This document shows positions 7,510 through 23,414 of a stretch of 64,000 nt of DNA, piece after piece (the first letter of the stretch is position 1; every line of letters starts with the position of its first letter). The position numbers and the translations under genes are program-made. This DNA is from Alphaproteobacteria bacterium (lineage in GTDB: Bacteria; Pseudomonadota; Alphaproteobacteria; Bin95): assembly GCA_964291285.2 (NCBI GenBank), contig OZ219785.1, positions 1,024,001 to 1,088,000 on the forward strand, read 5' to 3'. Below the pieces are notes generated by a model, which saw only the letters and a list, made by a program, of their open reading frames with translations, did not search any database and was not told the DNA's origin.

Positions 7510-7604
7510 GGGTCCGGCCTCCTCCGCCTGCCGCGCCGGGCCATCATGGCACAGCCCGGCGCAACTTGCGCGCCTGCCGCCCCGCACCTATCTTCCGCTC
7601 CGCC

Positions 7605-7695
7605 GGGGAGGTGGCCGAGTGGCTGAAGGCGCACGCCTGGAACGCGTGTATACGGTAACCCCGTATCGTGGGTTCGAATCCCACCCTCTCCGCCA
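7605..7695 (+). tRNA. tRNA-Ser (anticodon GGA)
   Basis: Acceptor GGGGAGG/CCTCTCC plus GCCA end, anticodon arm CACGC-CTGGAAC-GCGTG, long variable arm, T-loop GTTCGAATC. Confidence 0.97.
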
Positions 7696-7716
7696 TAGTC
7701 GATGCTCTTTTTGTGG
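7686..7716. repeat. attL: tRNA 3' direct repeat plus left inverted repeat (ATAGTCGATGCTCTTTTTGTGG)
   Basis: Reverse complement matches 23251-23273 with 1 mismatch and 1 indel in the A/T run. Confidence 0.85.
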
Positions 7717-7934
7717 GAATTCGGCATCCTCCAAGTCATTGGAATTCCGGACTTCATGATTCGGCAAAACCGCCTTTCGGGGCGCACTCGAAAACTTGAG
7801 TGGGGTTGCCGCACCCTAACATGCGAGTTTTCCCGGAACAGGCGGGTCTGGGTGTTCCTTGCGGACTTTCGGCCGCCCTGTCAGGCCGGCACGAGCGCTG
7901 TCATGGCCTCGGCGATGCCGCCGGGCTCTTTCGC

Positions 7935-8808
7935 TCAGAAGGCGACATTCGCGCCGGCCAGAAGGATGTTGGACCGGGCGCTGCGGTCGCTGTGCGTGCG
8001 GGTATTGTCCACTTTCCTTTTGCCGTCTGTCCCCATGGCCATGATGCTGCCGCCGCTGATGAAGTTCAGCGGCACATAGCCGGCGGTCCGCACGACCTCC
8101 GCAAACAGCTTCACGCTCGGTTCGACGAACCAGGCAACGCCCAGCACGATCTGGTCCTGCTTCTCCCAGGGCGCGCCGCCCGGTCCGGCCGTGAAGCGGC
8201 TGAACTCGACCGAAAGGTCCAGCGGCCCGCTGCCGGAATCGACCCGGTATCTGGCCCCGGCATCGAACGCCGTCACCTTGCTGGCGGCGAATTGCGGTAT
8301 GTCGGGGTTGAAGGTCCCCGGCCACACATCGGTCGTCCGGGCGAATTCCGCCTTGAAGGTGAAGGGGCCGTTGACGCGCCGCCCGTAAAAGGCCGACCGC
8401 CGGGTTGTTGTCCTGGCAGGGCTCGAAATGTTGCACGGGGTAGTCCTGGCAGTAGGCCGAGCCGCGCTGGTATGAGCCGCCCAGGAGAGCCGTTCCCACC
8501 GTCTCCAGCCGGAATTCGTAGCTCGTATCGACGGCAAAACTGTTCAGCCTGCCGGGAACGGCGGTCCCCTTCACCGGCGTGTTCGCCGCGCGGAACTGGG
8601 CCCCGCCCTGTATGCCCATCAGGGCGAGGGTCCCGTCCCGCTTGCGCTCCAGCACAAGGCGTTCCTTGCGGTTGATGCCTTCCGTCGGGTCGAGGAGTTC
8701 ATAGGCGAGGCGCGCCTCGGTGCGGACGAAGCCGGCCGGGGCCTTCGCGGCAGCGACGGGAGCGGGAACGGCGGCGGCGGAGGGTGGTGCGGGCTCGCGG
8801 GCCTGCAC
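7935..8808 (-). pseudogene. Frameshifted/truncated outer-membrane beta-barrel (porin-like) protein
   Basis: C-terminal part (7935-~8395) has amphipathic strands ending in terminal Phe (LLAGANVAF); N-terminal part is in another frame (SAYCQDYPVQHFEPC); no signal peptide. Confidence 0.6.
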
Positions 8809-8886
8809 CGTCCAAAAGTTGAACCGGGGCCGGGGCGAAGCGGTCGACGCCGGGTCTCGAGGGATCGCAAATCTCAGCCGTTGGTA

Positions 8887-11800
8887 TCAGTTCATCGTCA
8901 GGCGCCGCAGGTCGTGCCCGACAGCCAGCATTGCCGGCACGACGAACAGGATGAGCAGGGTCGCGGTGGCCAGGCCGGCCACGATGGTGAGCGCCACGGG
9001 GATCAGGAACTGCGCCTGCAGGCTGGTCTCGAAACAGAGCGGCAGCAGGCCGCTGATGGTGGTGAGCGAGGTCAGGATCACCGCGCGCAGGCGGTCGCAG
9101 GACCCGTCTTCTATGGCCTGCAGCGGCGGCTTGCCTTCCTGCTCGTGGTCGGTGATCGCCACGATGAGCACGATCGAATCGTTGATGACGATGCCGGAGA
9201 GCCCGATCATGCCGATGATCGACAGGACGGTGAGGTCGAAGCCGGTGAAGAAATGGCCGAGCGAGACGCCGATGAAGCCGAGCGGCACCACCGCCAGCAC
9301 CGCCAGCGGGCGGCTGTAGCTGCCGAAGATCCAGGCGAGCACCAGGAACATGCCGGCCAGACCGATCGCCGCGCCGACGCCCATGTCGGCGAAGGTCTCG
9401 GCCTGCTCTTCCGCCTTGCCCGCGAAACGCCATTCGAGGCCCGCATCCCCGGCGATCTCCGCCAGGCCGTCCCGCCGGAGCGCGGCGAGCACCACATTGT
9501 TGGTAGTGACGGTCTCGTCCACCTCCGCCGTCACCGAGACCTCGCGCCGGCCGCGCTCGCGGCGGATGACGTCGTAGCCGCTGGAGGGCGTCACGGTCAC
9601 CACGGCGCTCAGCGGCACCTCGGTCCCGTTCGGGCCGAACAGGTAGAGCGCGCCGAGCCCGCCCGGGTTCTCCTTCTGCCGGACCCTGACCTCGACCTCT
9701 TCGTCGTCCCTGGCGAAGCGCAGCGCGATGTCGCCCTCGAGCGCGCTGCGAAGCTGGCTGCCCGCCCGCGCGATGTCGAAGCCCATCGCCCGGCCCGCCG
9801 GCGTCACCCGAAGCTGCATTTCCCGGTTGCCGTAGGCGAGGTTGTCGCCGATGGCGCTCACGCCCGGATATGAAGCGAGAAGGGCCTTCACGCGCCCGGC
9901 CGCGGCCTTGAGGTCGTCGAGGCTGTCGCCGGACAGGCGCACATCGATTTCGCGCCCGGGCGGTCCGCCGGTCGCGGCGCGGATGGTCAGCGCATCGGCC
10001 CCGACGATCGGCCCGTTGCGATCCCGCCATGCCTGCACGAAGGCTTCGGTGCGCACGTCGCGCTTGTCGGAATCGACGAGTTGGACGACCACCGCGCCCA
10101 CCGTGTCGTCGCGCCGGTGGAGTCCCGACAGGGCCTGGTTGCGCTCGATGCCCTGGACGACGAGCGAGGTATGCACGAGGCCAGGGTCTCCGAAGTCCCC
10201 GGCGGTGGCGCGGGCGCCCCGCTCGATCTGAAGGAGCCGCTCGAGGGTCTCCTCGCCGGTCGTTCCCGGAACCATGCGGAGGTTCGCGAAGATGTTGTTC
10301 GGCTCGACCGAGGGGAAAAAGGTGAAGCCGATGCGCCCGCTGGCCGCAATGCCGAGACTGACGAGGAAGAAGCCGACCGCCAGCGCCAGCACCAGGTAGC
10401 GGTGGACGAGCGCGCGCCCGACCGTGCGCCGGAACGGACCCTCGCGGAACCGGCGGAAGCCTTCGTCGAACCCCCGGCGGAAGCGCGAGGCCCGGCCCTC
10501 CGCAGCGGCCGCGGTCGCGGCGAGCGAATGGCGCAGATGGCCGGGCAGCACCAGGAAGCACTCCACCAGGCTCGCCACCAGCGCCAGCACGACGATGATC
10601 GGGATTTCCCGGATGATCTGCCCGATAATGCCGCCGATCAGGATCAGCGGCAGGAAGGCGGCGATGGTGGTCAGGCTCGAGGAGAACACCGGGCCCGCCA
10701 TGCGCCGCGCGCCTTCCATGGCCGCGTCCAGAGGGTTGTCGCCCCGGCGCGCGCGGGTCTCGGCGTGCTCGGCCACCACGATGGCGTCGTCCACGACGAG
10801 GCCGATGGCGAGAATTGTTCCGAACAGGATGATCATGTTGATCGCGTGCCCGAACGCCCAGGCAAGCGCCATCGCGGCGAGCAGGGCGGCGGGGATGCCG
10901 GCGGCCACCCACAGCGCCGTGCGCGCGTTCAGGAACACGAACAGCACGACCAGCACGATGACAAGGCCGCCGATGCCGTTGCGGACCAGCAGGTCGATGC
11001 GCTGGTCGATCAGGTCCGCCGCCGCGTCGTAGCGGTTGACCGCGATGCCGGGAGGCAGGGTCGGCACGAAACCGTCCAGGAACCGGTCGGCGGCCTCGGC
11101 CGTTTCCAGCGCGTCGGCGGTCGTCGCCCGCTTGACGATGAGTTCCACCGCCGGGCGGCCGTCGAACCAGACCCGCGGCTGGTCCTCGTTCCAGGCTTCG
11201 CTCACCTCCGCAATCTCGCCCACCGTCAGCCTGCGCCCGTCCGGGAACGCCCGGACCTCGACCGCGGCGACCTCCTCGGCCGTGCGCGCAAGACCGAGCG
11301 AGCGCACCCGCGAGAGCGAGCGCCCGCCGGTGTCGCCCCCCGGTATGTCGCGCGAGGCGCCCGCGATCCGGCCCGATATTTCCGAGATCGGCAGGTCGAG
11401 GGCCAGCAGGTCCTGCTGGTCCGCCTCGACCAGGATCCACTCGTCGCGCGCCCCGACCATCTCCACTTCATCGACCCCGGCGCGGATCAGCCCGTCGCGC
11501 ATCCGGGTCGCCCATGCCTTGAGCGTGCGCTCCGGCAGGTCTCCGGCCAGCACGATGCGCAGCAGGTTCTCGTAGCGCACCACGCGCCGTATCCAGGGCG
11601 TCTCGCTGTCCTCGGGCAGGGTCGCGACCCGGGACACGGCCGCCTCCACATCCGCCAGCGCCGCCTGCATGTCGGTCCCGGCCTCGAAAACGATCCGTAT
11701 GTTTGCGAGACCCTCCTGGGAGTTGGAAACGACCCGCTTCACCCGGTCGAGGAAGCGGACCTCGGGCTCGATCGCCTGGACGATGGCATTGTCCACATCC

Positions 11801-11964
11801 TCCGCGCCAGCGCCGGGCCATGTCACGGAGACGAGGACCGCGTCGATGCCGAAATCGGGGAAGAACTGCTTGTTCATCCGCCCGAGCGCCAGCAGCCCGA
11901 CCACCAGCATGGCCGCCATCACCAGGTTCGCCGCCGTCGGGTGGCGCGCGAAAAGCGCGATCAA
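8887..11964 (-). CDS. RND efflux transporter permease (AcrB/AcrD/AcrF family)
   Basis: ARHPTAANL N-terminus, GLVVDDAIVVAE, GIVINDSIV, RLRAVILTSLTT; probable TTG start at 11964. Confidence 0.93.
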   Translation of the reverse strand: MIALFARHPTAANLVMAAMLVVGLLALGRMNKQFFPDFGIDAVLVSVTWPGAGAEDVDNAIVQAIEPEVRFLDRVKRVVSNSQEGLANIRIVFEAGTDMQAALADVEAAVSRVATLPEDSETPWIRRVVRYENLLRIVLAGDLPERTLKAWATRMRDGLIRAGVDEVEMVGARDEWILVEADQQDLLALDLPISEISGRIAGASRDIPGGDTGGRSLSRVRSLGLARTAEEVAAVEVRAFPDGRRLTVGEIAEVSEAWNEDQPRVWFDGRPAVELIVKRATTADALETAEAADRFLDGFVPTLPPGIAVNRYDAAADLIDQRIDLLVRNGIGGLVIVLVVLFVFLNARTALWVAAGIPAALLAAMALAWAFGHAINMIILFGTILAIGLVVDDAIVVAEHAETRARRGDNPLDAAMEGARRMAGPVFSSSLTTIAAFLPLILIGGIIGQIIREIPIIVVLALVASLVECFLVLPGHLRHSLAATAAAAEGRASRFRRGFDEGFRRFREGPFRRTVGRALVHRYLVLALAVGFFLVSLGIAASGRIGFTFFPSVEPNNIFANLRMVPGTTGEETLERLLQIERGARATAGDFGDPGLVHTSLVVQGIERNQALSGLHRRDDTVGAVVVQLVDSDKRDVRTEAFVQAWRDRNGPIVGADALTIRAATGGPPGREIDVRLSGDSLDDLKAAAGRVKALLASYPGVSAIGDNLAYGNREMQLRVTPAGRAMGFDIARAGSQLRSALEGDIALRFARDDEEVEVRVRQKENPGGLGALYLFGPNGTEVPLSAVVTVTPSSGYDVIRRERGRREVSVTAEVDETVTTNNVVLAALRRDGLAEIAGDAGLEWRFAGKAEEQAETFADMGVGAAIGLAGMFLVLAWIFGSYSRPLAVLAVVPLGFIGVSLGHFFTGFDLTVLSIIGMIGLSGIVINDSIVLIVAITDHEQEGKPPLQAIEDGSCDRLRAVILTSLTTISGLLPLCFETSLQAQFLIPVALTIVAGLATATLLILFVVPAMLAVGHDLRRLTMN

Positions 11965-12045
11965 GGGACGGTGACCCTGACGCCGGGGGCGATCTCCGGG
12001 ACGCGCATCAGCACGATGCGCTGGCCGTTCCCCAGCGGCCTCTGC
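11961..12045 (-). pseudogene. C-terminal remnant of RND periplasmic adaptor (MFP)
   Basis: Reads PLGNGQRIVLMRVPEIAPGVRVTVP*, resembling MFP C-termini; its TGA overlaps the RND TTG. Confidence 0.5.
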
Positions 12046-12238
12046 TCCGGCGTCCTCCGGGCGGCCATCGGCGCCAATGCAGTAAACCCCCTCGCCCTCG
12101 AAAACGAAGGACTTTATGAGTATTGCCAACTACTATACGAAGTATAGCTGATTGTTCTAGCCGTTGCGGGTGACTCCCCGAGTCCAAAGGGGCGTTGGTC
12201 GGGTCGGGGCCCGCTTGAGGGTAAAATTGAGGCAGGCC

Positions 12239-13285
12239 ATGGACATCTCTCCAGCAATCGTCGTCAGTTCCGGACGCTGCGGTTCGACCATGCTGTCCGA
12301 TGTCCTGAACTCGCATCCGGACATTCTCAGCATATCCGAGTTGTTTATCTTGCAGGGTCGCGCCCTGTTTCACTTCCGGCGCCTGACCGGCAACGAGATG
12401 TGGAGCATCGTCAGCAGGCAGACGAGGGCGCAGCGCCGGCAACTCGGCAGCCACTCCGAAGCGCTCTTGTACCCGGTCGGCACCCCGCGCGGCCGCTATG
12501 CCGGCGCGGAGATACCCCCCATTTCGTGGGTCACGCTTCCGCATATCACCGACCGGCCCGACGACCTTCTCGACGAGCTCGAGCCGGTGATCCGCTCGCA
12601 GCCGCGCCAATATGCGGCCGATCATTACCGGGCGATGTTCGCGTGGCTGAGCCGGAAGTTCGACCGAAAGGTCTGGGTGGAGCGCTCGGGCGGGGCCGGG
12701 ATGTATGCGCCCAGACTGGCGCAAATGTTTCCCGAGGCGAAGTTCATCCATCTCTACCGCGACGGGCGCGATACCGCCATGTCGATGAAGAAGCACCCCG
12801 TGTTCCGCGAAGCCATGCGCTACATTGTGACCATGAGGGAGTATGGCGTGGATGCGCTGAAACCGATGACAGGGGTCTCGGGACATGCGTTCCGGGACTG
12901 GGCGATGCTGCGCACCCAGCTTCTCGTGTATGTCGTCTTTCTGTTCAGCAGAACCAGAGACCGGGAATTCACGCTTGCCGAATTCGGGAAATTCTGGTCG
13001 GACATAGTCGACTTGGCGGACCGGTTTCTCGACACGCTTCCGCCGGAAAAGGTGCTGCGTGTGCGGTTCGAGGACATGCAGAGCGAACCGGAGAAGGAGA
13101 TTGCGCGCCTCGCGCGGTTTCTCGATCCGTCTCTCGAAGATCCGGAATGGGTGAAGGAGGCGGCGCGGATCCCCCGCCCGACACCCTCGAAGCTGGGAGA
13201 CCTCATTCCCGCCGAGCGCGCCGCCTTGACCGAATCCTGCCGGTCAAGCCTCGAACGCCTCGGTTACGATCTCAGGGAATCATGA
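12239..13285 (+). CDS. PAPS-dependent sulfotransferase (348 aa)
   Basis: 5'-PSB motif SSGRCGSTML, KVWVERSGG, 3'-PB motif HLYRDGRDTAMS, VRFEDM. Confidence 0.9.
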   Translation: MDISPAIVVSSGRCGSTMLSDVLNSHPDILSISELFILQGRALFHFRRLTGNEMWSIVSRQTRAQRRQLGSHSEALLYPVGTPRGRYAGAEIPPISWVTLPHITDRPDDLLDELEPVIRSQPRQYAADHYRAMFAWLSRKFDRKVWVERSGGAGMYAPRLAQMFPEAKFIHLYRDGRDTAMSMKKHPVFREAMRYIVTMREYGVDALKPMTGVSGHAFRDWAMLRTQLLVYVVFLFSRTRDREFTLAEFGKFWSDIVDLADRFLDTLPPEKVLRVRFEDMQSEPEKEIARLARFLDPSLEDPEWVKEAARIPRPTPSKLGDLIPAERAALTESCRSSLERLGYDLRES

Positions 13286-15729
13286 ACCGGTCCCGCACAG
13301 CCGGGACCGGCCTGAGAGGCGCGCTTCCGTTTTCAATCACGCTGCTGCTTGTGCCTTTGGTTATAGCCATGGCGCTGGACTTGCTGCCCGACTTCATTCC
13401 ATGGGTCGTTCCATGGATTATCTTGCCGCTTATTCCCTATATCAAAATTGTGGAAACATTATGCAAGAACGATGTCCCGAACCTGGATCGCAACACGCCG
13501 GAGTCCCGGGTATTCTGGCATATGGCCATTCTCGTTTTATGGGCAGTACTTTATCCTCTGTTGGTGATCTTCATACTTTGGGCCGTATGCAACTTACCGA
13601 CCCTGCTGCTCTACGAACGCCTTGTTCTGCTCGTATTTTGCGGAATGCTCGGCAGACTCGTAACCATAACGTCGCATGACCTGATCCACAGGCCGAAACT
13701 ATGGATGCGGCGGCTGGCGGAATTCACGATGGGCGCAATCGCCATGCCGCACATGTACACGGAACATGTTTATATGCATCATCCGAATGTCGCAACGCCG
13801 CGGGACAGGGAGTCCGCGCGACTTGGGCAAAGCTATTACAATTACTTCTTTACCGGACTTCCCTATGTCTATGCGGAGGCGATTCGTGTCCAGCATCGCC
13901 GGTTGGCCCGCCGCGGTCTGTCGTTCTGGCACAAGTCGAATCCGGTCTGGCTATGGGCCGCCATGTGGGCCGCCTGGCCCGCCCTGGCGCTTGCTATCGG
14001 AGGATGGCTGGGGCTCGCCGCCTGGGCGTTTATTGCCTTGTTCGCAGCCTGGGGGATCAGAGCCGTCGATTATATGCAACATTACGGTTTGCAGCGTGTC
14101 CTGAGGCCGAACGGCAAGTACGAACGGATCCAGCCGCATCATTCCTGGAATCATTCCAGTGCTTCGAACTATCTGTATTTCTCCATACAGCGGCACTCGG
14201 ATCATCACGACAAGCCGACCAGGCCGTACCCATTGCTTCACGGCCTCCCCGAAGACAAGGCCCCCAGCCTTCCATCGCATTACGGCTCGATGATGACCTT
14301 GCTTCTCTTTCCATCGGCCTGGTTCCGGAAAATGAACCCGATTGTCGAAGAGTGGCGGCGCAAATTTTATCCCGATATCAAGGATTGGCGGGCGCTCTCC
14401 AGCAAAGCCTACCGCCACCGGCCCGAGTCGCTCCCCTTGATTTCGGAGGTTATTCAGGGCGCGCCATGTCTGGCAAGATATATGGAGGTCTGTTATCCGC
14501 TGATCGACAGCGTTGCCAGCCGACAATTTCAGCAGATTACCGTTCCCGACAATATAGGCATGGAGCCTGACGAGTTGCTCTTTGCCCAGAGGGGGTTGCT
14601 GCGGCTCTATTACGGTCATGAGTTCGGCTGCAGCGAAATGATTGAAGATATGGACCTTTCAGAAACGGATATGGCCGAGGAAGTCGCCGAAAATGCGCAA
14701 ATCTGGTGCAACGACCAGGCCTTCCAGATCGGCGTAAGGATGATGCGGGGACATGTTTTGGGGCAGGACGCCGGCCGGCCGCTCTCCAACATGGCCGACG
14801 CGGCGATAACCCTGCTGGCGCGGGCCGTTCTCGACGAATTCGTTGCCCATCGAGGCCCGGTTCCCGGCTACGGCATCGCCTTTGTGGCCCTTGGCAGGCT
14901 CGGAGAACGCCGGATGACCTTCGAATCGGAAGTCGAGATCATCGCTTTGGCGGATGGCGCATCGGACATCGAAGGCAGCGGATTCGTTCTGGAGGACAGT
15001 GCCGGCGAGTTCTGCAGGAGGTTCAACAAGGTCGCGGCGCAGTGGTCGGCCAACAACATGCTGGTCAAGTCCGTCCATATGCGGGCCCCGGGCAGCGCGG
15101 CCGACAATGTTACCGGTGCGCTGGAGCGCTTTGCGAACGGCGCCGGGAAACCGGATGCGGATTTTCTGCGGGAAGCGGCGTCGGCGAGGATCGTGTGCGT
15201 GGCCGGCGACCGCCCCGACAAGTTCGCCGAACGGTTCGAGGAAGCCAGGCGGTCCCTCCTCCTCCGGCAGGCTCCGCCGGCCGCCGATAGTCTTCACCCC
15301 GTCCCGGACGAGGAAGGCGAGCGGTTGCTCCCGGCGATTCTGGAAGGCCTGGGCGGTCTGGGCGATCTCGAACGGACCGCGCTCGGGTTGCGTCTGCAAT
15401 ATGGCGAGAGCCATCCGGATATGGCAGGTGGGGATGGACCGGCGGCTGTACTGAAGAAAGCCGGAGAGGTCGGAATTCTCGAATCGCAGACTGCGGAGGA
15501 ACTTGCCGGGGCAGCGGGTTTCCTGCTGGGCGTGGAGTGTGTCCTGTCGCTGGTGAACGGCGGACAGGCCGGCGAGGCGCATTGGGAGGATGCGGTCAAG
15601 GCCACCGTGGCCCGGGCCTGCGACGCCCGGGATTTCGAGGAGGTCGTTGCGAAGGCAAAGGACGCGGCCGCCCGCATCGCTGCATATCCGGTTGCGGAAC
15701 AGGAGCCAGGCGACGGCACCGAGCGGTAA
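13282..15729 (+). CDS. AlkB-type membrane diiron hydroxylase/desaturase fused to a C-terminal GlnE-like nucleotidyltransferase domain (815 aa)
   Basis: His boxes HDLIH, EHVYMHH, DYMQHYG, IQRHSDHH; C-terminal ALGRLGERRMTFESEVEI and GGLGDLE resemble the GlnE adenylyltransferase domain; ATGA overlap with the sulfotransferase. Confidence 0.82.
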   Translation: MNRSRTAGTGLRGALPFSITLLLVPLVIAMALDLLPDFIPWVVPWIILPLIPYIKIVETLCKNDVPNLDRNTPESRVFWHMAILVLWAVLYPLLVIFILWAVCNLPTLLLYERLVLLVFCGMLGRLVTITSHDLIHRPKLWMRRLAEFTMGAIAMPHMYTEHVYMHHPNVATPRDRESARLGQSYYNYFFTGLPYVYAEAIRVQHRRLARRGLSFWHKSNPVWLWAAMWAAWPALALAIGGWLGLAAWAFIALFAAWGIRAVDYMQHYGLQRVLRPNGKYERIQPHHSWNHSSASNYLYFSIQRHSDHHDKPTRPYPLLHGLPEDKAPSLPSHYGSMMTLLLFPSAWFRKMNPIVEEWRRKFYPDIKDWRALSSKAYRHRPESLPLISEVIQGAPCLARYMEVCYPLIDSVASRQFQQITVPDNIGMEPDELLFAQRGLLRLYYGHEFGCSEMIEDMDLSETDMAEEVAENAQIWCNDQAFQIGVRMMRGHVLGQDAGRPLSNMADAAITLLARAVLDEFVAHRGPVPGYGIAFVALGRLGERRMTFESEVEIIALADGASDIEGSGFVLEDSAGEFCRRFNKVAAQWSANNMLVKSVHMRAPGSAADNVTGALERFANGAGKPDADFLREAASARIVCVAGDRPDKFAERFEEARRSLLLRQAPPAADSLHPVPDEEGERLLPAILEGLGGLGDLERTALGLRLQYGESHPDMAGGDGPAAVLKKAGEVGILESQTAEELAGAAGFLLGVECVLSLVNGGQAGEAHWEDAVKATVARACDARDFEEVVAKAKDAAARIAAYPVAEQEPGDGTER

Positions 15730-15850
15730 CGGTGAAATGCCCCGCTTGCCTCGACTGCTGTCAGGCTCCGCATCCGTACCCTTCGGGGTCCGGCGCGGTC
15801 AACCCGTTCATGGCGCGGGTCCGGGTCCCAGGCGGCGTGCCGGGCGACGG

Positions 15851-18271
15851 CTACGGCCCCGGCAGGAGCGTCAGCACCCCCGCCGCCTCCTGCAAGGCCT
15901 CGGCGCGGGTTCGGGGAATGCGCATATAGTCGCCGTCCCGCCACCGGCGGGTCGTGTTGTCGTAGCGCCAGGACAGGAAATTGCCGCTGGCGCCGGTTCC
16001 GACGGAGAACACGGAGTTCGAGAGATCGGACAGGTCGTAAACCGCGCGGTAGCCGGAGCCGTGGTTGGCGGCGAAGGGCGCCTCCTTATTGGCGACGTTG
16101 TGCCGCCCGCGATTGACGGTGAAGCCGCCGCCTCCCGTCTCGATGCGGATATCCGCCAACCGCTTCAGGACCGGTATGCGGCCGAGCAGGACATGGCCGA
16201 ATACGGCCCGGTGCGCCTCGCCCCAATGCCAGTCCTCCATGTCGTCTCCGTAGCGGCGCGCCAGATCGTCGAGAGCGCGTGAAAGAGCGGCGGCGACGGT
16301 CTGGCCGCACGTCTCGACGGGCGTCGTCGTCACATCGTCGCACCATGCCCGGCGGTTTTTCAGCATGTGGGCGACAGTGCCCGGCCGGAGGCCGAAAAAG
16401 GGCTGGAAGAGGTCGCCGAGTTCGTCGGCGTAGAGACCGCGGTTCACTTCTGCGAGCCAGGCCGCAAATATCAACGGCGCCGCCGATGCGCGCGCCATAC
16501 GCAGGTCCCAGCCGCGCAGCAGGGACAATGCGCGTTTCCCGTTTTCGTCCATCCCGGCGGGTTCGGCGAGCATCAGAAACAGGGGGACGAGGTCAGCCGC
16601 AGCGCCGGAGAACTCGTCGTGCTGCAGCGCCGTTTCCGTTGCAACCGTGCGCGGAGCGACCTGCTCCATGTGCGCCTTGATCCGGTCCGCCCGGTATGGC
16701 GGCGGCCAGCGGCGGGCGAGGAACCACGGATGGTCGGCAGGGACGATGCGTTGATTGGCATGCACGAGCAGGCCCGACGGCGGGTTGAAGGCGCGCGGAA
16801 GCGCATCGTGCGGCACGAACCCGGTCCAGTCCCCTTCGCCGGTCCAGCCGGCCGAAGGCAGCCAGCCGTCGCCGGCGCTGCGTATCGGAACCCGCCCCGG
16901 CGACAGGAAGCCGATATTCCCATCTATGTCGGCATAGGTGATGCTGACATGAGGAGAATGGAAATTCTCCAGGGCGGACGTGAATCCGGCCCAGTTCTGT
17001 GCCCGGTTCAACCTGAGAAAGGCGAGAATTGTCATGTCATCGTCGCGCAGAAGCGTCGAAGAGAATGCGACGACATGGTCCCGCTTCCCGGGATATTGCC
17101 CATCGAGGGCGGCGAAGTCGGGCGCGAGGTCGGAAACCACCGGGCCGTGGCGCGTTTCCCGGACGACCAGCTCCACGGGTTCCCGCCCCTTCACGGCAAG
17201 GGTTTCGATCCGCTCATCGAATGGCCGTGATCCGCCGGGCGCGTCGTAACGGCCCGGCTCGCCTTCGCTTATGCGCTCTATGAAGAAATCCTGAAAGTCG
17301 CTGCCTGCATTGGTTACGCCCCACGCAATGGCGTCGTTATGGCCCAGAACGAAAACGGGTCCGCCCGGAACCGTTGCGCCTGCCAGGCTAAGGCCCGGCG
17401 CTTCCATGCGCGCGAGATACCAGAGTCCGGGCGCTGTCAGCGCCAGATGGGGATCGCTGGCCAGCATGGGGAGGCCGCTTGCCGTCCTGCTGCCCGCAAC
17501 TGCCCACGCATTGGACGCCTGTGACTCTGATTGCGAGCCGCCGGACATGGCCCTCCACAGGGATTTCCATTGGGCGGCAACGGGCGTGTGTCCCGCAATC
17601 CCGCGACCGGCGCCGGACAAGTCGCCATCGACGTCCTCGGGGAACAGGTCGGAGAGTTGCGCGGGGGACAATCTTGCCGCAAGCGCGCCTCGAAGGGCTT
17701 CACTCTCCCACTCCCAAACCAGGTTGGCCAGTTTGACGCCGCTCCGCGCCAGCGAATCCTTCGGCCGCCACGGTTTCGGTTCGTAGCCGAGCAGGACGAA
17801 TTCGGGCGGCAGCGCGCCGGGCCGCGTTGCCAGCCAGGCGTTGATGCCGGCGGAATAGGCCTTCAGAACCCCGACCGCATCTTCCGGCAGGCGCGAGAGA
17901 ATCCGCTCCGCATTCCGTTCCGTCCCGAGCGTTCGCGCCATGCGGTCTATGGAGAGCGTTCGCTCGCCGACGACTTCGGAAAGCGTTCCGCTGCCAATCC
18001 GGCGCGCGAAGTCCATCTGGAACATCCGGTCGCGCGCATGCACGTATCCAAGAAGGAAATAGGCATCGTCGACCGTCGCCGCCCGGATATGGGGAATGCC
18101 GTTGGCGTCGTAGATCACTTCTCCCCGCTGCTGGAGGCCGGGAAGCCGGATCTCGCCGTCGAGCCGCGGCAGCGATGTGCGCAGCCAGAACCAGCCCGCC
18201 GCGCCTGCAAGGAGGATCGCGGCGGCGAATGCCACCGGCAGAGCGATCCACAGTTTCGTCCTCCGTCTCAT
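15851..18271 (-). CDS. Penicillin acylase / AHL acylase family Ntn hydrolase
   Basis: N-terminal TM, GIPHI, GYVHARDRMFQMD, beta-subunit start SNAWAV, DPHL. Confidence 0.93.
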   Translation of the reverse strand: MRRRTKLWIALPVAFAAAILLAGAAGWFWLRTSLPRLDGEIRLPGLQQRGEVIYDANGIPHIRAATVDDAYFLLGYVHARDRMFQMDFARRIGSGTLSEVVGERTLSIDRMARTLGTERNAERILSRLPEDAVGVLKAYSAGINAWLATRPGALPPEFVLLGYEPKPWRPKDSLARSGVKLANLVWEWESEALRGALAARLSPAQLSDLFPEDVDGDLSGAGRGIAGHTPVAAQWKSLWRAMSGGSQSESQASNAWAVAGSRTASGLPMLASDPHLALTAPGLWYLARMEAPGLSLAGATVPGGPVFVLGHNDAIAWGVTNAGSDFQDFFIERISEGEPGRYDAPGGSRPFDERIETLAVKGREPVELVVRETRHGPVVSDLAPDFAALDGQYPGKRDHVVAFSSTLLRDDDMTILAFLRLNRAQNWAGFTSALENFHSPHVSITYADIDGNIGFLSPGRVPIRSAGDGWLPSAGWTGEGDWTGFVPHDALPRAFNPPSGLLVHANQRIVPADHPWFLARRWPPPYRADRIKAHMEQVAPRTVATETALQHDEFSGAAADLVPLFLMLAEPAGMDENGKRALSLLRGWDLRMARASAAPLIFAAWLAEVNRGLYADELGDLFQPFFGLRPGTVAHMLKNRRAWCDDVTTTPVETCGQTVAAALSRALDDLARRYGDDMEDWHWGEAHRAVFGHVLLGRIPVLKRLADIRIETGGGGFTVNRGRHNVANKEAPFAANHGSGYRAVYDLSDLSNSVFSVGTGASGNFLSWRYDNTTRRWRDGDYMRIPRTRAEALQEAAGVLTLLPGP

Positions 18272-19665
18272 GCTGCATCCTTCGGCGATGGTTCCGGCGC
18301 CCTCATCTGCGCAACAAGGCGCCAGGCAAGCCCGAGCGAGAGGGAGCCGGCGAGAGCTCTGCCGATCGGCACCGCGCACACCGCCGCCGCCGCGCCAAGC
18401 GCGAGCACGACCGGCTCCCCGTCCGGCATTCCCACGAGCAGCACCAGCGCCAGCAGCGTCAGGACGTTCGCCGTCCAGTCCAGGACCGTCGTCCAGACCG
18501 AACGTCCGAAATGGTAGAATACCGGCCTGCAGAGCGCTGCCATGCTTGCCGGGACGAGCGCGGCGAAACCGTACAGGGCGTAAACATGCACCAGGCCCGA
18601 CGCTCCCGCCGTCAGATCGAACATTCGGGAGATCTGGCCGGAGGTCGACGCGAACAGCGCCCAGACCGCAATGACGTAGCAGATGGAGAACACCGCCGCG
18701 CTGCGAAGGCTGGCGGCGGTCCGGCCGGTGTCGCCGGCACCGTAATTCTGCCCCAGCACCGGGTTGAGCGCGATGGTCAGTCCCATGATCCCGCACCCCG
18801 CGAGCAAGGTGATCCGTGCGAGCAGCGCCCATGCGGCAAGCGCGCTGTCCCCGAACGCCGCGACCCACCAGGTCGCCAGCAGCCAGATTGTGGGCGTCGC
18901 GAGTTCCGACAGGGCGGCCGGCCCCGCGATTGCCAGAACGGGCCCGGCGTCGCGAACCGTCTCGAAAATGTCGGGAAGCTTCAGGAGACGGTATTTGCGG
19001 ATGACGAACCCGACGCCGAGCGCCGCGCTGATCGCGCGGTCCGCCAGCAGCGCCCAGGCGGCTCCCTCCAGGCCCAGACCGGCCCAGAAAATCAGCGCCG
19101 GGCTGACCGCCAGGGCCGCCAGACTGCCCGAAACGGTCACCGCCACGGATCGGCGCACGTCGCCGGCACCGCGCAATATCGCGCCCGTCGCCAGGCTCAC
19201 CGCTGCCAGGGGGACGGAATACAGGGCGATCTCCAGATAGAGGTCCGCAGCGTCGAAGACCGCGCCCGGCTCCACGAAGGAGGCGAGAGCCGCGCCGCGA
19301 AAGACCTGCGCCAATCCGACGGCGGCGCACAGGACGGCCAGGGTGACGACCAGGCATGAGGTCGCCTGCCGCACGGCCAGCGCTTTGTCGCCGGCGCCGA
19401 GCGACTGGCTGACCTGCACGGTCGCCGATGACGCAAAGGCGAGCCCGATGGCAATGACGAAATACTCGATGAATCTCGCGAGCCCGACAGCAGCGATCAA
19501 CCGCTCGTCGCGCAATAGCGAGACATAGAAGAGGGTCACCAGGTCGGCCAGGAAGATGAACAGCAGTGCCGTCGAAGCGGGCCCGGCCATGCGCAGCAGG
19601 TGGCGCCCGACCGGGCCGGTCGTATAGACGCCCTCGGCCGCGCTCCTCGCTCCCGGCTCCGCCAC
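18268..19665 (-). CDS. MATE family efflux transporter
   Basis: YTTGPVGRHLLRMAGP, LADLVTLFYVS, LGQNYGAG; many TM segments; GTG start inferred. Confidence 0.88.
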   Translation of the reverse strand: MAEPGARSAAEGVYTTGPVGRHLLRMAGPASTALLFIFLADLVTLFYVSLLRDERLIAAVGLARFIEYFVIAIGLAFASSATVQVSQSLGAGDKALAVRQATSCLVVTLAVLCAAVGLAQVFRGAALASFVEPGAVFDAADLYLEIALYSVPLAAVSLATGAILRGAGDVRRSVAVTVSGSLAALAVSPALIFWAGLGLEGAAWALLADRAISAALGVGFVIRKYRLLKLPDIFETVRDAGPVLAIAGPAALSELATPTIWLLATWWVAAFGDSALAAWALLARITLLAGCGIMGLTIALNPVLGQNYGAGDTGRTAASLRSAAVFSICYVIAVWALFASTSGQISRMFDLTAGASGLVHVYALYGFAALVPASMAALCRPVFYHFGRSVWTTVLDWTANVLTLLALVLLVGMPDGEPVVLALGAAAAVCAVPIGRALAGSLSLGLAWRLVAQMRAPEPSPKDAA

Positions 19666-19679
19666 CGCTACGCCGCGCT

Positions 19680-20726
19680 CTACACGGCGTAGCCGAGCCG
19701 CTCCAGACCCGGCCGGCAGGCTTCGGTCAATGTCGCCCGTTCTTCCGGATCGAGCCGGCCAAATTTGGACCGGGACGGCCTCGGTATCCCGGCTGCTTCG
19801 TGAATCCAGTCCTCGTTTTCCAAATCTCTGGAAATAAACCGGATTATACGACGCAGCTCCCACTCTGCATTTTGCTGCAAATCGTCAAACCGTACCTCCA
19901 GGACCTGTTCCGACGGCAGGTTCTGGATGAAGTCCTGAGCTGCTCCTACCATCGAGCTCCATATTGCGCCGAAGTGCGCGATCTCCAACCGGTCGGCGGA
20001 CATGGGGATCGGGAACCGGGACAAATACTTCAAAGGTTGCAGGCGCAGCGCCATCGAATCCCAGAATTCGCCATGTTTCGCCTCGACTCTAAAGGGATCG
20101 TATCTTCGCTTCTGGAGGGCAATTATGTAGGGCGCAATTCCTCTGAATGGATGATGTTGAAACATGGAAAGCGCAACATCCCGCCCGTCCCGGTGCATGT
20201 TGATCACCTTGGCTTCCGGAAATCTGTACATGAGCCTCGACGCATACATGGAAGACCCGCCGGAGCGTTCAACCCATACCTTCCGGTCGAATCTGTCACA
20301 CAACCACTCGAAAAGATCACGACAATGTTTTGCAGGAGACTGGCGTGGAAAACTTCGCACGACCGGTTCCATCTCATCGAAGAGTCTTTCGTAGTGATTT
20401 GTCAAGTGAGGAAGCGTCACGCATAGAATGGGAGGGACAGTTTTTCGTCCAAACCGGGAATCGGGATCTTCGAAGGGATACAGCAGTTCTTCGTAGTCTT
20501 TTCTCAGAAGATAACGAACCAATTGCGGTTGATGGGTAAGAACATGCCACATTCCGTTTCCGGTCAGGCGCCATCGGCTGAACAAGGCAGTGCTGTGAAA
20601 TGTAAAAAACTCGGAGATGCTGAGGAGATCCGGATGCAGGTTCAACATGTTGGACAACATCGTCGACCCGCAGCGGCCGGAACTGAGAACGATAACCGGT
20701 GGATAGCGCAGTGCCCGGCCGGTCAT
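19680..20726 (-). CDS. PAPS-dependent sulfotransferase, paralog of 12239-13285 (348 aa)
   Basis: SSGRCGSTML, KVWVERSGG, HRDGRDVALS. Confidence 0.9.
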   Translation of the reverse strand: MTGRALRYPPVIVLSSGRCGSTMLSNMLNLHPDLLSISEFFTFHSTALFSRWRLTGNGMWHVLTHQPQLVRYLLRKDYEELLYPFEDPDSRFGRKTVPPILCVTLPHLTNHYERLFDEMEPVVRSFPRQSPAKHCRDLFEWLCDRFDRKVWVERSGGSSMYASRLMYRFPEAKVINMHRDGRDVALSMFQHHPFRGIAPYIIALQKRRYDPFRVEAKHGEFWDSMALRLQPLKYLSRFPIPMSADRLEIAHFGAIWSSMVGAAQDFIQNLPSEQVLEVRFDDLQQNAEWELRRIIRFISRDLENEDWIHEAAGIPRPSRSKFGRLDPEERATLTEACRPGLERLGYAV

Positions 20727-20820
20727 CGAACGCCTCCCGGTCGTGTTGCGGCCCTTCGTCCGCCGGGACAGCCGGCGGGCAGGGGAGCGCGTCTGGTAAG
20801 CGGCAGCGGAAATCCCGACA

Positions 20821-21813
20821 TCAATCCAGCAATCGAATTACTGCGTCCGCGGCGAGGTCCACCGTCATCGTCGCCGTATCGATCCGCAGTTCGGGAGCTT
20901 CCGGGGGTTCGTAAGGGGAATCGATCCCGGTGAAGTTCACGAGATCGCCCCTGCGCACCTTGGCGTAGAGGCCCTTCGGGTCGCGTGTCTCGCAGACCGC
21001 AAGCGGCGCGTCCACGAATATCTCCAGGAACTCGCCTTCCTCCATCAGGTCGCGCGCCATGCTGCGTTCGGACCTGAATGGGGAGATGAAGGAAACGATC
21101 ACGATCAGCCCCGCATCGGCCATCAGCTTCGCGACCTCGGCCACGCGGCGGACGTTCTCGACCCGGTCGCGCTCGGTGAAACCGAGGTCCCTGTTGAGCC
21201 CGAGCCGGACATTGTCCCCGTCCAGGAGATATGTGCGCCTGCCGCTTGCATGGAGCTTCTGTTCCACGCGGTCGGCGACAGTCGATTTCCCCGCCCCGGA
21301 CAGGCCGGTCATCCATAACACGCAGGGGCGCTGCCCGAGAGCGTGCGACCTCGCCGCCTTGTCGATCTTCAACTCCTGCCGGACGATATTGGTCGCGCGG
21401 CGGAGCGCGAATTCGATGGCGCCCGTGCCCGCTTCCTCGCCGGTGAGCAGGTCGGCAAGGCTGAACACGCCCGCCCTGCGGTCGGCGGCAAAATCCAACT
21501 CAACAGGCCGGTCGAGCGACAGCTTGCAATAGCCGATCTCTTCGGGACCCAGCGTCCTTGCAGCCATATGCTCCAGCGTATCCGTATCGATCCGGTGAAC
21601 GATCTCGGTGACCTGTGCAACCGCTGAGACATTGGCAAAATGAATGAGATAGCGCCGCTTCGGCAGCAGCGGCTTGCTGGCCGTCCAGATGATATGGGCG
21701 GCATACTGGTCGGCGGTCTCCGGCGCAGGGCCTTCCTCCCCGACCGTCCTGCTGCGACCGATATCGACGGTTTCGAGCAGTTTCGTCAGCTCAGAACCGG
21801 AATGTCCGGGCAT
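20821..21813 (-). CDS. cysC: Adenylyl-sulfate (APS) kinase with CysN domain III (truncated CysNC/NodQ)
   Basis: TGLSGAGKST, LDGDNVR, FISPF, RDPKGLY, FTGIDSPYE; N-terminal ADQYAAHIIW CysN-III-like segment; no GTPase domain. Confidence 0.9.
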   Translation of the reverse strand: MPGHSGSELTKLLETVDIGRSRTVGEEGPAPETADQYAAHIIWTASKPLLPKRRYLIHFANVSAVAQVTEIVHRIDTDTLEHMAARTLGPEEIGYCKLSLDRPVELDFAADRRAGVFSLADLLTGEEAGTGAIEFALRRATNIVRQELKIDKAARSHALGQRPCVLWMTGLSGAGKSTVADRVEQKLHASGRRTYLLDGDNVRLGLNRDLGFTERDRVENVRRVAEVAKLMADAGLIVIVSFISPFRSERSMARDLMEEGEFLEIFVDAPLAVCETRDPKGLYAKVRRGDLVNFTGIDSPYEPPEAPELRIDTATMTVDLAADAVIRLLD

Positions 21814-22429
21814 GCCGCCGCTGGTCGTCAAGACGTTTTACCCACGCGGCACGCAAACCGGAGGCCGCGCCTTCGCGCATCGAACGCGCGAGCGCTTATC
21901 GCCATGGCGTTGCAGCAACGCAGATACGCCAGCCGTCCGTCATGCGATCCGGAAGCGCGGCGTAGGGCATCGTCGACAGGGCGGGGGAAAGACAGCGAAG
22001 TGTTTCTGCAAGAACTGAATACATGCATCGGCCACGAAAACCGCCGGACAGGACTTGCGTTACAGGTGCGCCGATGCACCGGAACTACATCAGAGACAAC
22101 CTCGCTGCTGAACTTCAAGTCCATCGTCGACCCGGCCCGAAAACGCGGAAGTTCTCCCCGATCCAGCGGAGCAGCGCGAACCTGAGGCTGCACAATTTGA
22201 GCTGCCCGCCTCCAATATGTCAACGACAATCGAATTGAGGTTGGTCGATGATTGCGTCCATTGGATGACCGGGTTCGGGCGGAGACAGATGCCATATCAG
22301 GTCCGCCCACCTGCCTTATTCACCGTTTCGAGAAATCCGGCTCATCGGGCCTTCGTTCGAGATTCTCCTCGACTTTCTGCCCGCCAACGACGCAAGGGCG
22401 GAAGGTTTCTCCGGCTACACGCTCACCGC

Positions 22430-22740
22430 GCGGCGCCACGGCAACGGGTTCGCGATCGACGCCCGCTACCCCTTCTGGCCGATCGGTTCGACTGCTTCGT
22501 TCACGATGTCCGCAATCATGGATGGAATCCGGTCGACCAGGGCCCGCTCCGGCACAACCTGCCGTTCTTCGTGAACGACGGCAAGCGTATTGCACGCGAC
22601 ATCGAGAGACGGTTCGGCCCGATGCCGACCATCGGGTGTTCCATTCGCTCTCGACCATCCTGGCGCTGCGTCAGGCGAGCACGAGCGAGTGCTTCGATGC
22701 GCTGGTGCTGTTCGATCCGCCGCTGTGCCCGTCCGGCCCG
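22430..22740 (+). pseudogene. Alpha/beta hydrolase remnant (frameshifted)
   Basis: Fragments in three frames: HGNGFAIDARYPFW / DRFDCFVHDVRNHGWN / VFHSLS..LVLFDPPL. Confidence 0.6.
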
Positions 22741-22836
22741 GCATGCACGCGGATTCGCGTTTCTTATCCTGGCGCGGGTGCAATGTCCTTCACGCGCCGC
22801 CCGTCTTCGACCCGGCCCGAGCCGGCAAGGGCGCGG

Positions 22837-22950
22837 TTACCTTCCGCTGTGCCCGGCCAGCGCCGGTTCGATGCTGGCGATGGCGATAACCGCAACGAGC
22901 ATGGCGAGCCACGCAACGGTCGTCAGGTCTTTCCTTGCTTTCATGTTCAT
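22837..22950 (-). pseudogene. 37-aa ORF resembling a TrbC/VirB2 pilin leader (remnant)
   Basis: GGGGGAG RBS; MNMKARKDLTTVAWLAMLVAVIAIASIEPALAG then early stop. Confidence 0.4.
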
Positions 22951-23089
22951 CGTCTCCCCCTTCAACGAGGCTCTCTTCGGATGGCGGCAATCTAGCTATA
23001 CCGCCGGGGCAAGTTCCAATGCCGTTTTCCTTCGCAGTCCATAAGAATTTCCTATGAGAGCGGGCCCCGGCAGTCCGGAGCGGCGCGGT

Positions 23090-23180
23090 TCAGTCTTTGC
23101 GTGTTGTTCGGCGCTCCATGTCGACGCCGATCAGCATCCGCATGCCATCGTTCCCAATTTGGATTCCGAGGGGTCAGGGC
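23090..23180 (+). pseudogene. Possible relaxase HUH-motif remnant
   Basis: Reads ALHVDADQHPHAIVPNLDSEG, resembling MOBP/VirD2 motif III (H-x-D-x-x-H-P-H-x-H). Confidence 0.35.
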
Positions 23181-23250
23181 CCTGGGCCGGGGCACCACAC
23201 CCGTTGCGCGCGACCCGCGATCTGACGAACGCGGTGCTGTCGGAGATACG

Positions 23251-23286
23251 CCACAAAAAAGAGCATCGGCTATCTCTCCGCCATAG
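23251..23286. repeat. attR: right inverted repeat (CCACAAAAAAGAGCATCGGCTAT) plus duplicated tRNA 3' end
   Basis: Read directly; duplicates the last bases of tRNA-Ser including CCA. Confidence 0.85.
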
Positions 23287-23414
23287 GCGGCAGCCGCCGC
23301 GCTCTGGTCCCTGCCGCGGAAGTGCTTTCCGGCACGCAGCGTCCGGTTGCGCCTACTGCCCGCAGGCGAACCGGGCTAGGATTGCGCCTGTCTGACCTTA
23401 GCGGGAGAAGCGCG

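Follow-up and report, generated by a model that had tools for sequence, protein, structure and literature searches.

A cargo-carrying island at a tRNA-Ser gene end, probably a non-autonomous member of a transposon family with 22-bp terminal inverted repeats

A 64,000-nucleotide stretch of an alphaproteobacterial genome (contig OZ219785.1 of assembly GCA_964291285.2, positions 1,024,001 to 1,088,000; hereafter the window) contains a single tRNA gene detectable by ARAGORN, a tRNA-Ser(GGA) at 7605-7695, whose 3' end runs directly into 15,579 bp of DNA (7695-23273) bounded by inverted repeats. This island probably belongs to a DNA transposon family that has terminal inverted repeats (TIRs) of 22 bp and homes to the ends of tRNA-Ser genes; it would be a non-autonomous copy with cargo only. 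The genome holding the window is called G000 here and its contigs C1-C5, while G003, G015 and so on are other genomes of the same genus and L-numbers are fetched loci. The features at the two ends of the element are as follows.

7605-7695, plus strand: tRNA-Ser(GGA), the target gene (ARAGORN, sequence)
7686-7694, no strand: target duplication, left copy, CTCTCCGCC, the last 9 tRNA bases before the terminal A (sequence)
7695-7716, plus strand: left TIR, ATAGTCGATGCTCTTTTTGTGG, 22 bp (sequence, family consensus)
23251-23273, minus strand: right TIR, CCACAAAAAAGAGCATCGGCTAT (reverse complement ATAGCCGATGCTCTTTTTTGTGG), 23 bp (sequence)
23274-23282, no strand: target duplication, right copy, CTCTCCGCC (sequence)
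23287-23299, plus strand: small hairpin GGCGG-CAG-CCGCC in the native flank, GGCGGCAGCCGCC, upstream of the aminotransferase gene at 23322-24719 (sequence)

The terminal base of the tRNA, the A of CCA at 7695, doubles as the first base of the terminal repeat of the element. An original prediction made from the sequence had placed the 13-mer CTCTCCGCCATAG at both island ends (7686-7698 and 23274-23286), inverted repeats just inside them, and GGCGGCAGCCGCC after the right repeat, and all three were confirmed. When the window was scanned with up to one mismatch, the 13-mer occurred at these two positions only (2 against 0.13 expected; at least 2 in 0 of 100 shuffles). The inner 17 bases of the left repeat (7700-7716) recurred once, inverted, at 23252-23268 (2 against 0.12 expected; at least 2 in 0 of 100 shuffles). 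Between the left repeat and the right one (23251-23273, reverse-complemented) there is one substitution and one additional T. Each junction was bridged with 0 differences by its own contig from the public run X22 (record 10, 7667-8929, on the left; record 16, 22194-24400, on the right); this run is perhaps the source sample of the genome itself. Public runs containing the stretch include sponge metagenomes. The acceptor stem of the tRNA carries a G3:U70 wobble pair (GGGGAGG against CCTCTCC).

The same ends recur widely among relatives. Across all fetched loci, the terminal repeat follows the consensus ATAGCCGAT-N5/6-TTTTGTGG. The motif stands directly after tRNA-Ser(GGA) in 9 of the 11 same-genus loci that were read, and the sequence beyond it differs in most of them; in G006 and G009, the tRNA-Ser(GGA) lacks the motif and runs straight into a gene, and G016 has something else at this place. 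The motif was also found after tRNA-Ser(TGA) and tRNA-Ser(CGA), and behind tRNA-Ser genes in a Paracoccaceae metagenome-assembled genome (MAG) and two gammaproteobacterial MAGs; the tRNA-Ser genes that it follows in an Arenicellales MAG and a Thiodiazotropha MAG differ in sequence. This indicates that the family crosses bacterial classes. A search of viral contigs for the tRNA end plus motif gave 0 matches, and comparison of the window DNA with a plasmid collection gave trivial matches only. Within G000, the motif recurs on C2, where tRNA-Ser(TGA) is followed by a 12-kb phage-like island, then the motif, then 6.1 kb of cargo unrelated to that of the window (an IclR regulator, a thiamine pyrophosphate-dependent enzyme and a TRAP transporter). 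This second element is closed by the inverted motif and by CCATCCGCC, the last nine bases of tRNA-Ser(TGA) before the terminal A.

Twelve elements could be delimited at both ends. An identical 9-mer flanked each of them (12/12), and in 11 of the 12 it was the end of a tRNA-Ser gene. Five different 9-mers were involved, CTCTCCGCC, CCATCCGCC, CCCACCGCC, GTCTCCGCC and CTCACAATG, the last of which is not a tRNA sequence.

Window element: 15.6 kb, 9-mer CTCTCCGCC
G000 C2 element: 6.1 kb, 9-mer CCATCCGCC
G015 array element 1 (E1; Ser/Thr kinase): 2.35 kb, 9-mer CCATCCGCC
G015 array element 2 (E2; DUF4238): 1.16 kb, 9-mer CCATCCGCC
G015 element within an insertion sequence (IS): 25 kb, 9-mer CTCACAATG
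G010 element: 39 kb, 9-mer CTCTCCGCC
G003 element: 17 kb, 9-mer CCCACCGCC
L088 element: 4.1 kb, 9-mer CTCTCCGCC
L089 element (SIR2-like gene): 4.6 kb, 9-mer CCATCCGCC
L102 element, Paracoccaceae (exonuclease-BRCT): 3.5 kb, 9-mer GTCTCCGCC
L133 element: 1.5 kb, 9-mer CTCTCCGCC
L140 element: 4.2 kb, 9-mer CTCTCCGCC

The 25-kb element of G015 lies inside an IS, both flanks matching two uninterrupted copies of that IS with an overlap of exactly 9 bp (4860463-4860471 and 1758365-1758373). This is a classical empty site, with a 9-bp duplication of a non-tRNA target. In every tRNA case, the native base after the 9-mer target is A. The duplication seems longer in some copies (13 bp in the window, 12 bp in the 25-kb element) because the native flank continues like the terminal repeat (A, AT, ATA or ATAG). 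The 13-bp match in the window arises in this way, as ATAG starts the left repeat and happens to be the native flank on the right: what holds throughout the family is the 9 bp at 7686-7694 and 23274-23282, and the further identity noted originally appears coincidental. Of the two explanations offered in the original prediction, a TIR element with a 9-bp target duplication at tRNA ends is thus supported by the shared TIRs, the 9-bp rule, and the empty site of a relative.

Elements of the family also stand in tandem arrays, in which neighbours meet at palindromic junctions consisting of an inverted repeat, 9 bp, and a second inverted repeat (G010, G015, G007, G012, L065, L078, L088, L089, L123, L133, and L140). 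The palindromic joined form that had been predicted from the two window ends does exist, as the junction of array neighbours. Excision was checked in Logan contigs of four public runs against window positions 6800-24400: neither the joint from 7694/7698 to 23283/23287 nor a circle joint was present among the 15 contigs listed, contigs being blind to rare forms. At L065 (1470-1555, in a MAG labelled uncultured Rhodobacter sp.), the junction is a perfect palindrome with 34-nt arms around CTCTCCGCC, longer and cleaner than the others; it could be the junction of two copies of one element, or a recent form derived from a dimer or circle. The preference for tRNA-Ser sites is strong but not absolute. 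Among 22 matches in a genus-wide motif scan, 14 lay in a tRNA-Ser context, 4 did not, 1 was beside a decayed tRNA-like end, and 3 were unexamined.

We propose that the family inserts through a 9-bp staggered cut, with a preference for the 9 bp that precede the terminal A in tRNA-Ser genes. As the terminal repeat begins with A, such an insertion would rebuild the encoded CCA and leave the tRNA gene whole. Head-to-tail arrays with the junctions described above would arise when further elements enter one of the two 9-mer copies. The family would recognize the tRNA end in some way, and the window copy is inferred to have arrived by transposition as one unit. In autonomous members, the elements would be moved by a protein of 626 amino acids (aa) carrying two zinc ribbons, a helical DNA-binding region, and an RNase-H-like DDE domain.

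The gene for this candidate transposase was traced from two open reading frames (ORFs) at the left end of the 25-kb element of G015, for which tblastn found the same gene beside the terminal repeat in seven other loci. It is a single ORF in G010, L140, and G007 and is frameshifted in G015, where a 73-aa relic also survives in array element 1 (2.35 kb, cargo only). The gene reads inward from a terminal repeat 110-470 bp upstream of it in 8 of 10 loci; in the other two (L149 and L150), no terminal repeat was found at up to 2 mismatches, the repeat having decayed. It is the only gene common to these otherwise different elements. Nine of the 16 other genomes of the genus contain it, with 1-3 intact copies each, mostly in tRNA-Ser arrays, while 0 of the 24 genomes of other genera that were searched do. 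In three autonomous elements, an ankyrin-repeat gene is convergent to it (L032 6507-6974 and 11525-11998, L030 about 15029-15487, L140 about 7372-7830) and may be a conserved accessory gene or mere shared cargo; a 189-aa ORF following the transposase gene proved to be an antisense artefact of an ankyrin-repeat gene.

The 626-aa protein belongs to a large family that has no match in Pfam, NCBIfam, or PHROGs. A first search gave 119 homologous clusters of about equal length, all unnamed or "hypothetical", and a larger library gave 1146 representative clusters (50% identity, E <= 0.001). Some long members carry a C-terminal RNase T-type exonuclease. Distant homologues are found on plasmids of cultured bacteria, where 7 of 8 are annotated as hypothetical and 1 of 8 as "insertion element protein"; around the homologue on a plasmid of Polaromonas JS666 (30% identity), no convincing inverted repeat was found within 9 kb. 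C30, C35, C74, C77, C114, C144, C147, D234, and D274 are the same in all of 51 diverse members, and D399 and D526 in almost all of them; the seven cysteines belong to two N-terminal zinc ribbons. The AlphaFold model (mean predicted local distance difference test score, pLDDT, 83; predicted template modelling score, pTM, 0.86) has a core in the RNase-H-like order strand-strand-strand-helix-strand-helix-strand-helix, with D234 on strand 1, D399 just after strand 4, and D526 at the start of the following helix. By their positions in the model and their conservation, D234, D399, and D526 would form the catalytic triad. In an all-against-all fold search, DDE transposases and integrases filled every row to rank 26.

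At the sequence level, one family member aligned pairwise with an IS1595 transposase of G000 (24% over 286 aa, E 2e-9) across the zinc ribbon, the helix-turn-helix (HTH), and the first catalytic D. One member had a weak Zn_ribbon_InsA match, and the nearest language-model neighbour bearing a Pfam family was IS1 (0.86), a lead only. The models DDE_Tnp_IS1595 and Zn_ribbon_IS1595 matched none of 21 family members, while the true IS1595 copy of G000 does match. Judging from its gene position and modelled fold, we regard the protein as most likely a transposase with a DDE fold, whose family is unclassified and whose N-terminus resembles those of IS1 and IS1595; since its sequence link to named families is only weak, we have filed it under neither IS1595 nor IS256. 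More tentatively, and at somewhat less than even odds, the 626-aa protein may found an unclassified DDE superfamily, of which one branch homes to the last nine bases of tRNA-Ser genes and mends their CCA end. Each tRNA-Ser gene would thereby become an integron-like platform that gathers cargo-only cassettes in the fields of defence, signalling, transport, and sulfation, with exchange of these cassettes across classes of marine and sponge-associated bacteria. On this view, since arrays go on growing once a transposon end has taken the place of the downstream flank, the tRNA-gene side may suffice for recognition.

In G000 itself, a genome search for the 626-aa gene gave 0 matches, and tblastn with 15 family members returned IS1595 copies only; in the window, the same 15 proteins gave nothing above chance-level fragments at E up to 1. 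The elements in the window and on C2 are therefore non-autonomous orphans, immobile unless a transposase enters from outside. This agrees with the original prediction of a non-autonomous element, the DDE-fold gene that lies beside the TIR in autonomous relatives being missing from the genome. That prediction had also seen no integrase or transposase in the island, and a Pfam search of the window ORFs likewise found only cargo between the repeats. The contents of the element are as follows.

7717-7925, plus strand: subterminal end region (blastn, 71-73% identity to the inner side of the G010, L123 and L133 ends)
7816-8808, minus strand: 330-aa ORF without family match, which may not be a gene (ORF list, Pfam)
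8887-12129, minus strand: AcrB-type RND efflux pump (Pfam ACR_tran, E 4.8e-153)
12164-13285, plus strand: sulfotransferase (Pfam Sulfotransfer_3, E 1.3e-21)
13624-14296, plus strand: fatty-acid desaturase domain (Pfam FA_desaturase, E 1.2e-22, residues 409-632 of ORF 12400-15729)
15851-18121, minus strand: penicillin-amidase family hydrolase (Pfam Penicil_amidase, E 6.4e-212, residues 413-1153 of ORF 15851-19357)
18268-19863, minus strand: MATE efflux transporter (the C3 copy, 98.9% identical, matches Pfam MatE, E 2e-30)
19680-20726, minus strand: second sulfotransferase (Pfam Sulfotransfer_3, E 2.8e-19)
20821-21831, minus strand: adenosine 5'-phosphosulfate (APS) kinase with an eEF1A-C-like domain (Pfam APS_kinase, E 1.5e-68)
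22217-23044, plus strand: 275-aa ORF without family match (ORF list, Pfam)
8877-22223, no strand: duplicated cargo block (blastn, colinear with C3:1853238-1875088, 88-99% identical)

The G+C content of the element is a mosaic (56-71%), and one ORF without a family lies beside each end. The start of the desaturase gene is not settled, its domain lying inside the long ORF 12400-15729. The APS kinase gene resembles CysN/C minus the GTPase part, and its C3 copy has the same form. The left approximately 230 bp of the element resemble G010 L027 4330-4565, the transposase-distal end of the autonomous 39-kb element (71-73%), with blastn matches at the same level in the metagenome arrays L123 and L133; this subterminal region probably holds further binding sites. 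The duplicated block makes up 13.3 of the 15.6 kb, and its identity to C3 varies by segment. On C3, the cargo has neither a TIR nor a tRNA nearby and is interrupted by three IS, with the amidase gene broken by one of them and more IS on both sides, while the window copy is intact; the greater damage makes C3 at least as likely to be the derived copy. The region C3:1850000-1879000 (L154, L155) is an IS hot spot, with an IS5/IS1182-like transposase, a Transposase_29 element (the one in the amidase gene), and an insertion containing IS21 IstB.

Several results weigh against reading the window island as a transposed member of this family. No empty site for the window copy was found when both flanks were searched in 40 relatives, including 16 same-genus genomes, nor by reading 11 loci, comparing G006, and aligning the right flank in 12 loci. 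In 12 relatives holding the flanking gene, nothing corresponded to the 25-85 bp with which this flank begins. Relatives without the cargo were originally expected to join the tRNA to the downstream flank; G006 and G009 show a different junction, which counts in part against the prediction and is explained by rearrangement of the region downstream of the tRNA within the genus. As to strict targeting, a scan with the exact 22-mer, whose query contains no tRNA sequence, placed 4 of 8 ends away from tRNA-Ser, and the two widest pattern scans included CCGCC, so that they could find only tRNA-like flanks and are biased toward the preferred site. For the protein, Pfam transposase models matched 0 of 21 family members (E up to 1 for three proteins and up to 0.01 for 18); the Foldseek matches all had E > 0.001, those to ISCth4 and Tn5 E > 0.01; an HMM search of sequences of solved structures gave no match; hhalign against the IS1595 transposase profile reached a probability of 32% (E 5e-4), with coverage confined to the N-terminal third (the ribbon, the HTH, and the first D); and a narrow alignment against a single IS1595 sequence was not significant. 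The proposed link from this protein to movement is drawn from gene position and a modelled fold. Finally, the two ends of the window element are of different flavours inside the TIR (GGGAAT... and GGCGTA...), which, together with the C3 paralogue, means that the unit may be a hybrid built by recombination.

Two divergent class-III aminotransferase genes stand on either side of the tRNA and element, at 6127-7587 (minus strand) and 23322-24719 (plus strand; Pfam Aminotran_3). In relatives, the distance between the tRNA and the right-hand gene ranges from 4 kb to 250 kb, or the two are on separate contigs, so that the neighbourhood is rearranged genus-wide; in some of these relatives, a TTCTCCGCCA relic lies upstream of it.

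The alternative that survives best, which we still regard as unlikely, is that the 15.6 kb of the window never moved as a unit: the ends would come from different elements of an old array, and the cargo from homologous or IS-mediated recombination with the C3 locus. The differing inner sequences of the two ends, the G+C mosaic, and the colinearity of 13.3 kb with C3 would all follow from such a history, and cargo-only elements with mismatched TIR variants occur elsewhere (G015 E1 and the L133 cassette). Yet the 9-bp repeats are intact on both sides, the TIRs differ only by the one substitution and one indel, and it is the C3 copy that is without TIR or tRNA and more damaged. In any case, such a history would concern this copy alone and would leave the kind of element unchanged.

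It is improbable that the TIR family, though real, is moved by another transposase acting in trans, with the 626-aa protein serving as cargo or as a DNA-binding accessory. Such an arrangement would fit with the lack of any transposase-model match (Pfam, NCBIfam, PHROGs) for a protein whose role is assigned from position and fold, with the many elements that move or persist without its gene, and with the large size of the autonomous candidates (17-39 kb), which hold many unannotated genes. Against it stand the constant position and direction of the gene relative to the TIR in 8 of 10 loci, its status as the only shared gene, the DDE fold matches to rank 26, and the combination of zinc ribbons and HTH, as in IS1 and IS1595 transposases. 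The gene is, moreover, low in copy number and found in tRNA-Ser arrays in 9 of 16 genus genomes. IS256, which is abundant in G000, was rejected as the mover: the genome has an unusually heavy IS load, including 24 full-length IS256-family transposase genes of two types on all five contigs, and these copies have unrelated ends (GGTCGTG...). An IS256 fragment beside one motif copy of G015 likewise proved to be a separate insertion with its own end.

Lower still do we rate a tyrosine or serine recombinase encoded elsewhere, for which the inverted repeat-9 bp-inverted repeat would be the site and the tRNA-Ser end the chromosomal partner, in the manner of an integron or of cis-mobilizable islands that lack a recombinase. 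A recombinase would account for the strong site choice (14 of 22), for head-to-tail arrays with a constant, same-oriented core at each junction (G010, G015, L088, L089, L133, and L140), and for annotated cassettes without an enzyme gene. However, the chromosomal site shares only the 9-mer with the element and none of the arms, and one element is flanked by the unrelated CTCACAATG, a target duplicated over exactly 9 bp. In three loci (G010 L030, G003 L148, and L145), the end with the transposase gene lies next to the tRNA, and in four (G003 L151, L140, G007 L028, and G012 L031) it lies on the far side, whereas a recombinase acting on an asymmetric core would give one orientation only. By Pfam, no recombinase gene was found in the window, the C2 element, both G015 array elements, the 25-kb element of G015, or L102, while a DDE-fold gene lies beside the TIR in 8 loci. 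A true integrase island looks different in the same genome: the 12-kb island at tRNA-Ser(TGA) (C2:84973-97087, L153) has a tyrosine integrase gene adjoining the tRNA, and its direct repeat is 27 bp long and extends into the T-loop. The other explanation in the original prediction, a recombinase attP with long symmetric arms, thus finds no support, given the lack of a recombinase gene in the annotated elements, the non-tRNA 9-mer, and the two orientations.

We give hardly any credence to a reading in which the motif is immobile, conserved DNA that trails tRNA-Ser genes and signals processing or termination, with the inverted copy at 23251 due to chance or local duplication. In its favour, three different tRNA-Ser genes are followed by the motif in many relatives, and on C2 the motif lies beyond the att repeat of the integrase island, where a native flank would be expected. 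Against it, an insertion in an IS with target duplication is also bounded by the motif, and inverted pairs of the motif enclose unrelated cargo in 12 elements. Behind tRNA-Ser genes of different bacterial classes, the motif leads into other sequence every time, and two relatives have a tRNA-Ser(GGA) without it. The empty site refutes such a reading, barring an assembly artefact.

A non-autonomous, cargo-carrying derivative of a DDE transposon, as preferred here, is in itself a known concept. Mobile insertion cassettes (MICs), such as MIC231 of the IS231 group, are non-autonomous, cargo-carrying IS derivatives, and like the window element they hold passenger genes between the TIRs of a family, lack a transposase of their own, and make target duplications of fixed length. 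The present element differs in having no matching transposase in trans in its own genome, in a parent family that is not a classified IS, in cargo of 1-15 kb (up to 39 kb in autonomous copies), and in its use of a specific gene end at which copies pile up in tandem. To IS256/Mutator (ISCth4, PDB 6xg8), the likeness is in fold only: there is no Pfam Transposase_mut match, the protein has two N-terminal zinc ribbons and is approximately 200 residues longer, the ends differ from GGTCGTG..., and IS256 has no gene-specific target. With IS1595 and IS1, the zinc ribbon, HTH, and first catalytic D come in like order, but the 626-aa protein is twice as long as that of IS1595 and the target is gene-specific. 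Some IS1595-group members reportedly carry passenger genes, and the duplications made by IS1 and by IS1016-type elements measure 8-9 bp.

Tn7 and CRISPR-associated Tn7-like transposons (CASTs) are also DDE elements that home to a safe site by an essential gene, are low in copy number and rich in cargo, and often carry defence-type genes; some CASTs home next to tRNA genes. Tn7, however, duplicates 5 bp, lands on the downstream side of its target gene in a single orientation, and depends on TnsABC together with D, E, or a guide RNA, while here there is one candidate protein, a 9-bp duplication, both orientations, and insertion inside the gene, among its final bases. Genomic islands that carry tyrosine integrases, and recombinase-less cis-mobilizable islands (CIMEs), share the tRNA 3' end, the direct repeat, the regenerated tRNA, and tandem accretion; they differ from the present family, which has no integrase, a 9-bp target duplication in place of an att core, both orientations, and a non-tRNA target. 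Integron cassette arrays are alike in outcome, with mostly single-function, enzyme-less cassettes and imperfect palindromes on one platform. Here, the junction consists of two transposon ends around a duplicated target instead of attC, the cassettes own inverted ends and can insert elsewhere, and no IntI turned up, no search having been aimed at intI. The eukaryotic Dada transposons duplicate 6-7 bp of target against 9 bp in this bacterial family. Dada elements resemble it as DDE-type TIR transposons that strictly target small-RNA genes, tRNA genes among them (Kojima and Jurka 2013, PMC3706591).

Within the scope of these comparisons, the departures from described systems are the unclassified transposase family, insertion at the last nine bases of tRNA-Ser with repair of CCA, the use of both orientations, and the integron-like arrays. 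In literature searches, whose yield consisted of listings and the opening parts of abstracts, no description of such a family appeared; ISfinder and TnCentral were outside the comparison, and a prior entry there is possible. Islands at tRNA genes are usually credited to integrases, and those without an integrase are usually called decayed. The island in the window would be of another kind, belonging to a transposon family for which the 3' end of tRNA-Ser genes is a safe site, made whole again on insertion, which bears on the annotation of integrase-less islands and would add a large unannotated protein family to the transposases. It would also provide a transposon route to single-locus cassette arrays, here holding defence-like genes (SIR2-like, Ser/Thr kinase, HEPN/nucleotidyltransferase, and exonuclease) as well as metabolic modules. 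If the 626-aa protein alone suffices for homing to a 9-bp site within a conserved gene, it would be a candidate tool for site-specific insertion, and a single-protein, programmable-looking safe-site integrase would be new. For G000, the meaning is modest: the element is a stranded, inert relic whose cargo is present twice.

Other traces of mobile DNA were found in G000. The phage-like island on C2 contains a D5_N primase-like gene, large terminase, capsid, prohead protease, and portal genes, and one IS, and it entered after the TIR element, displacing the left end of that element from the tRNA. Two motif-like sequences with one mismatch each lie at non-tRNA sites (C4:759825-759844, L040, and C1:135831-135851, L041) and may, from their sequence, be solo ends of decayed elements; the C4 copy continues like the inner end of G008 elements. 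The tRNA-Ser(CGA) gene at C2:655448-655537 is followed by AGAGGGGATCGGAATTTCTGTAGGAA, which loosely resembles the terminal repeat and may be a decayed end. Similar decayed repeats stand beside tRNA-Ser(CGA) in G006 and G010, with the 626-aa gene 2.5-6 kb away. Lastly, C1:809501-814500 (L147) has an IS1595-family transposase gene with a gene for an N6/N4 DNA methyltransferase directly behind it and a tyrosine integrase gene alongside. Identical copies at C2:1112533 and C3:1208120 bring the number to three, and the unit may be an IS1595 element that carries the methylase as a passenger.

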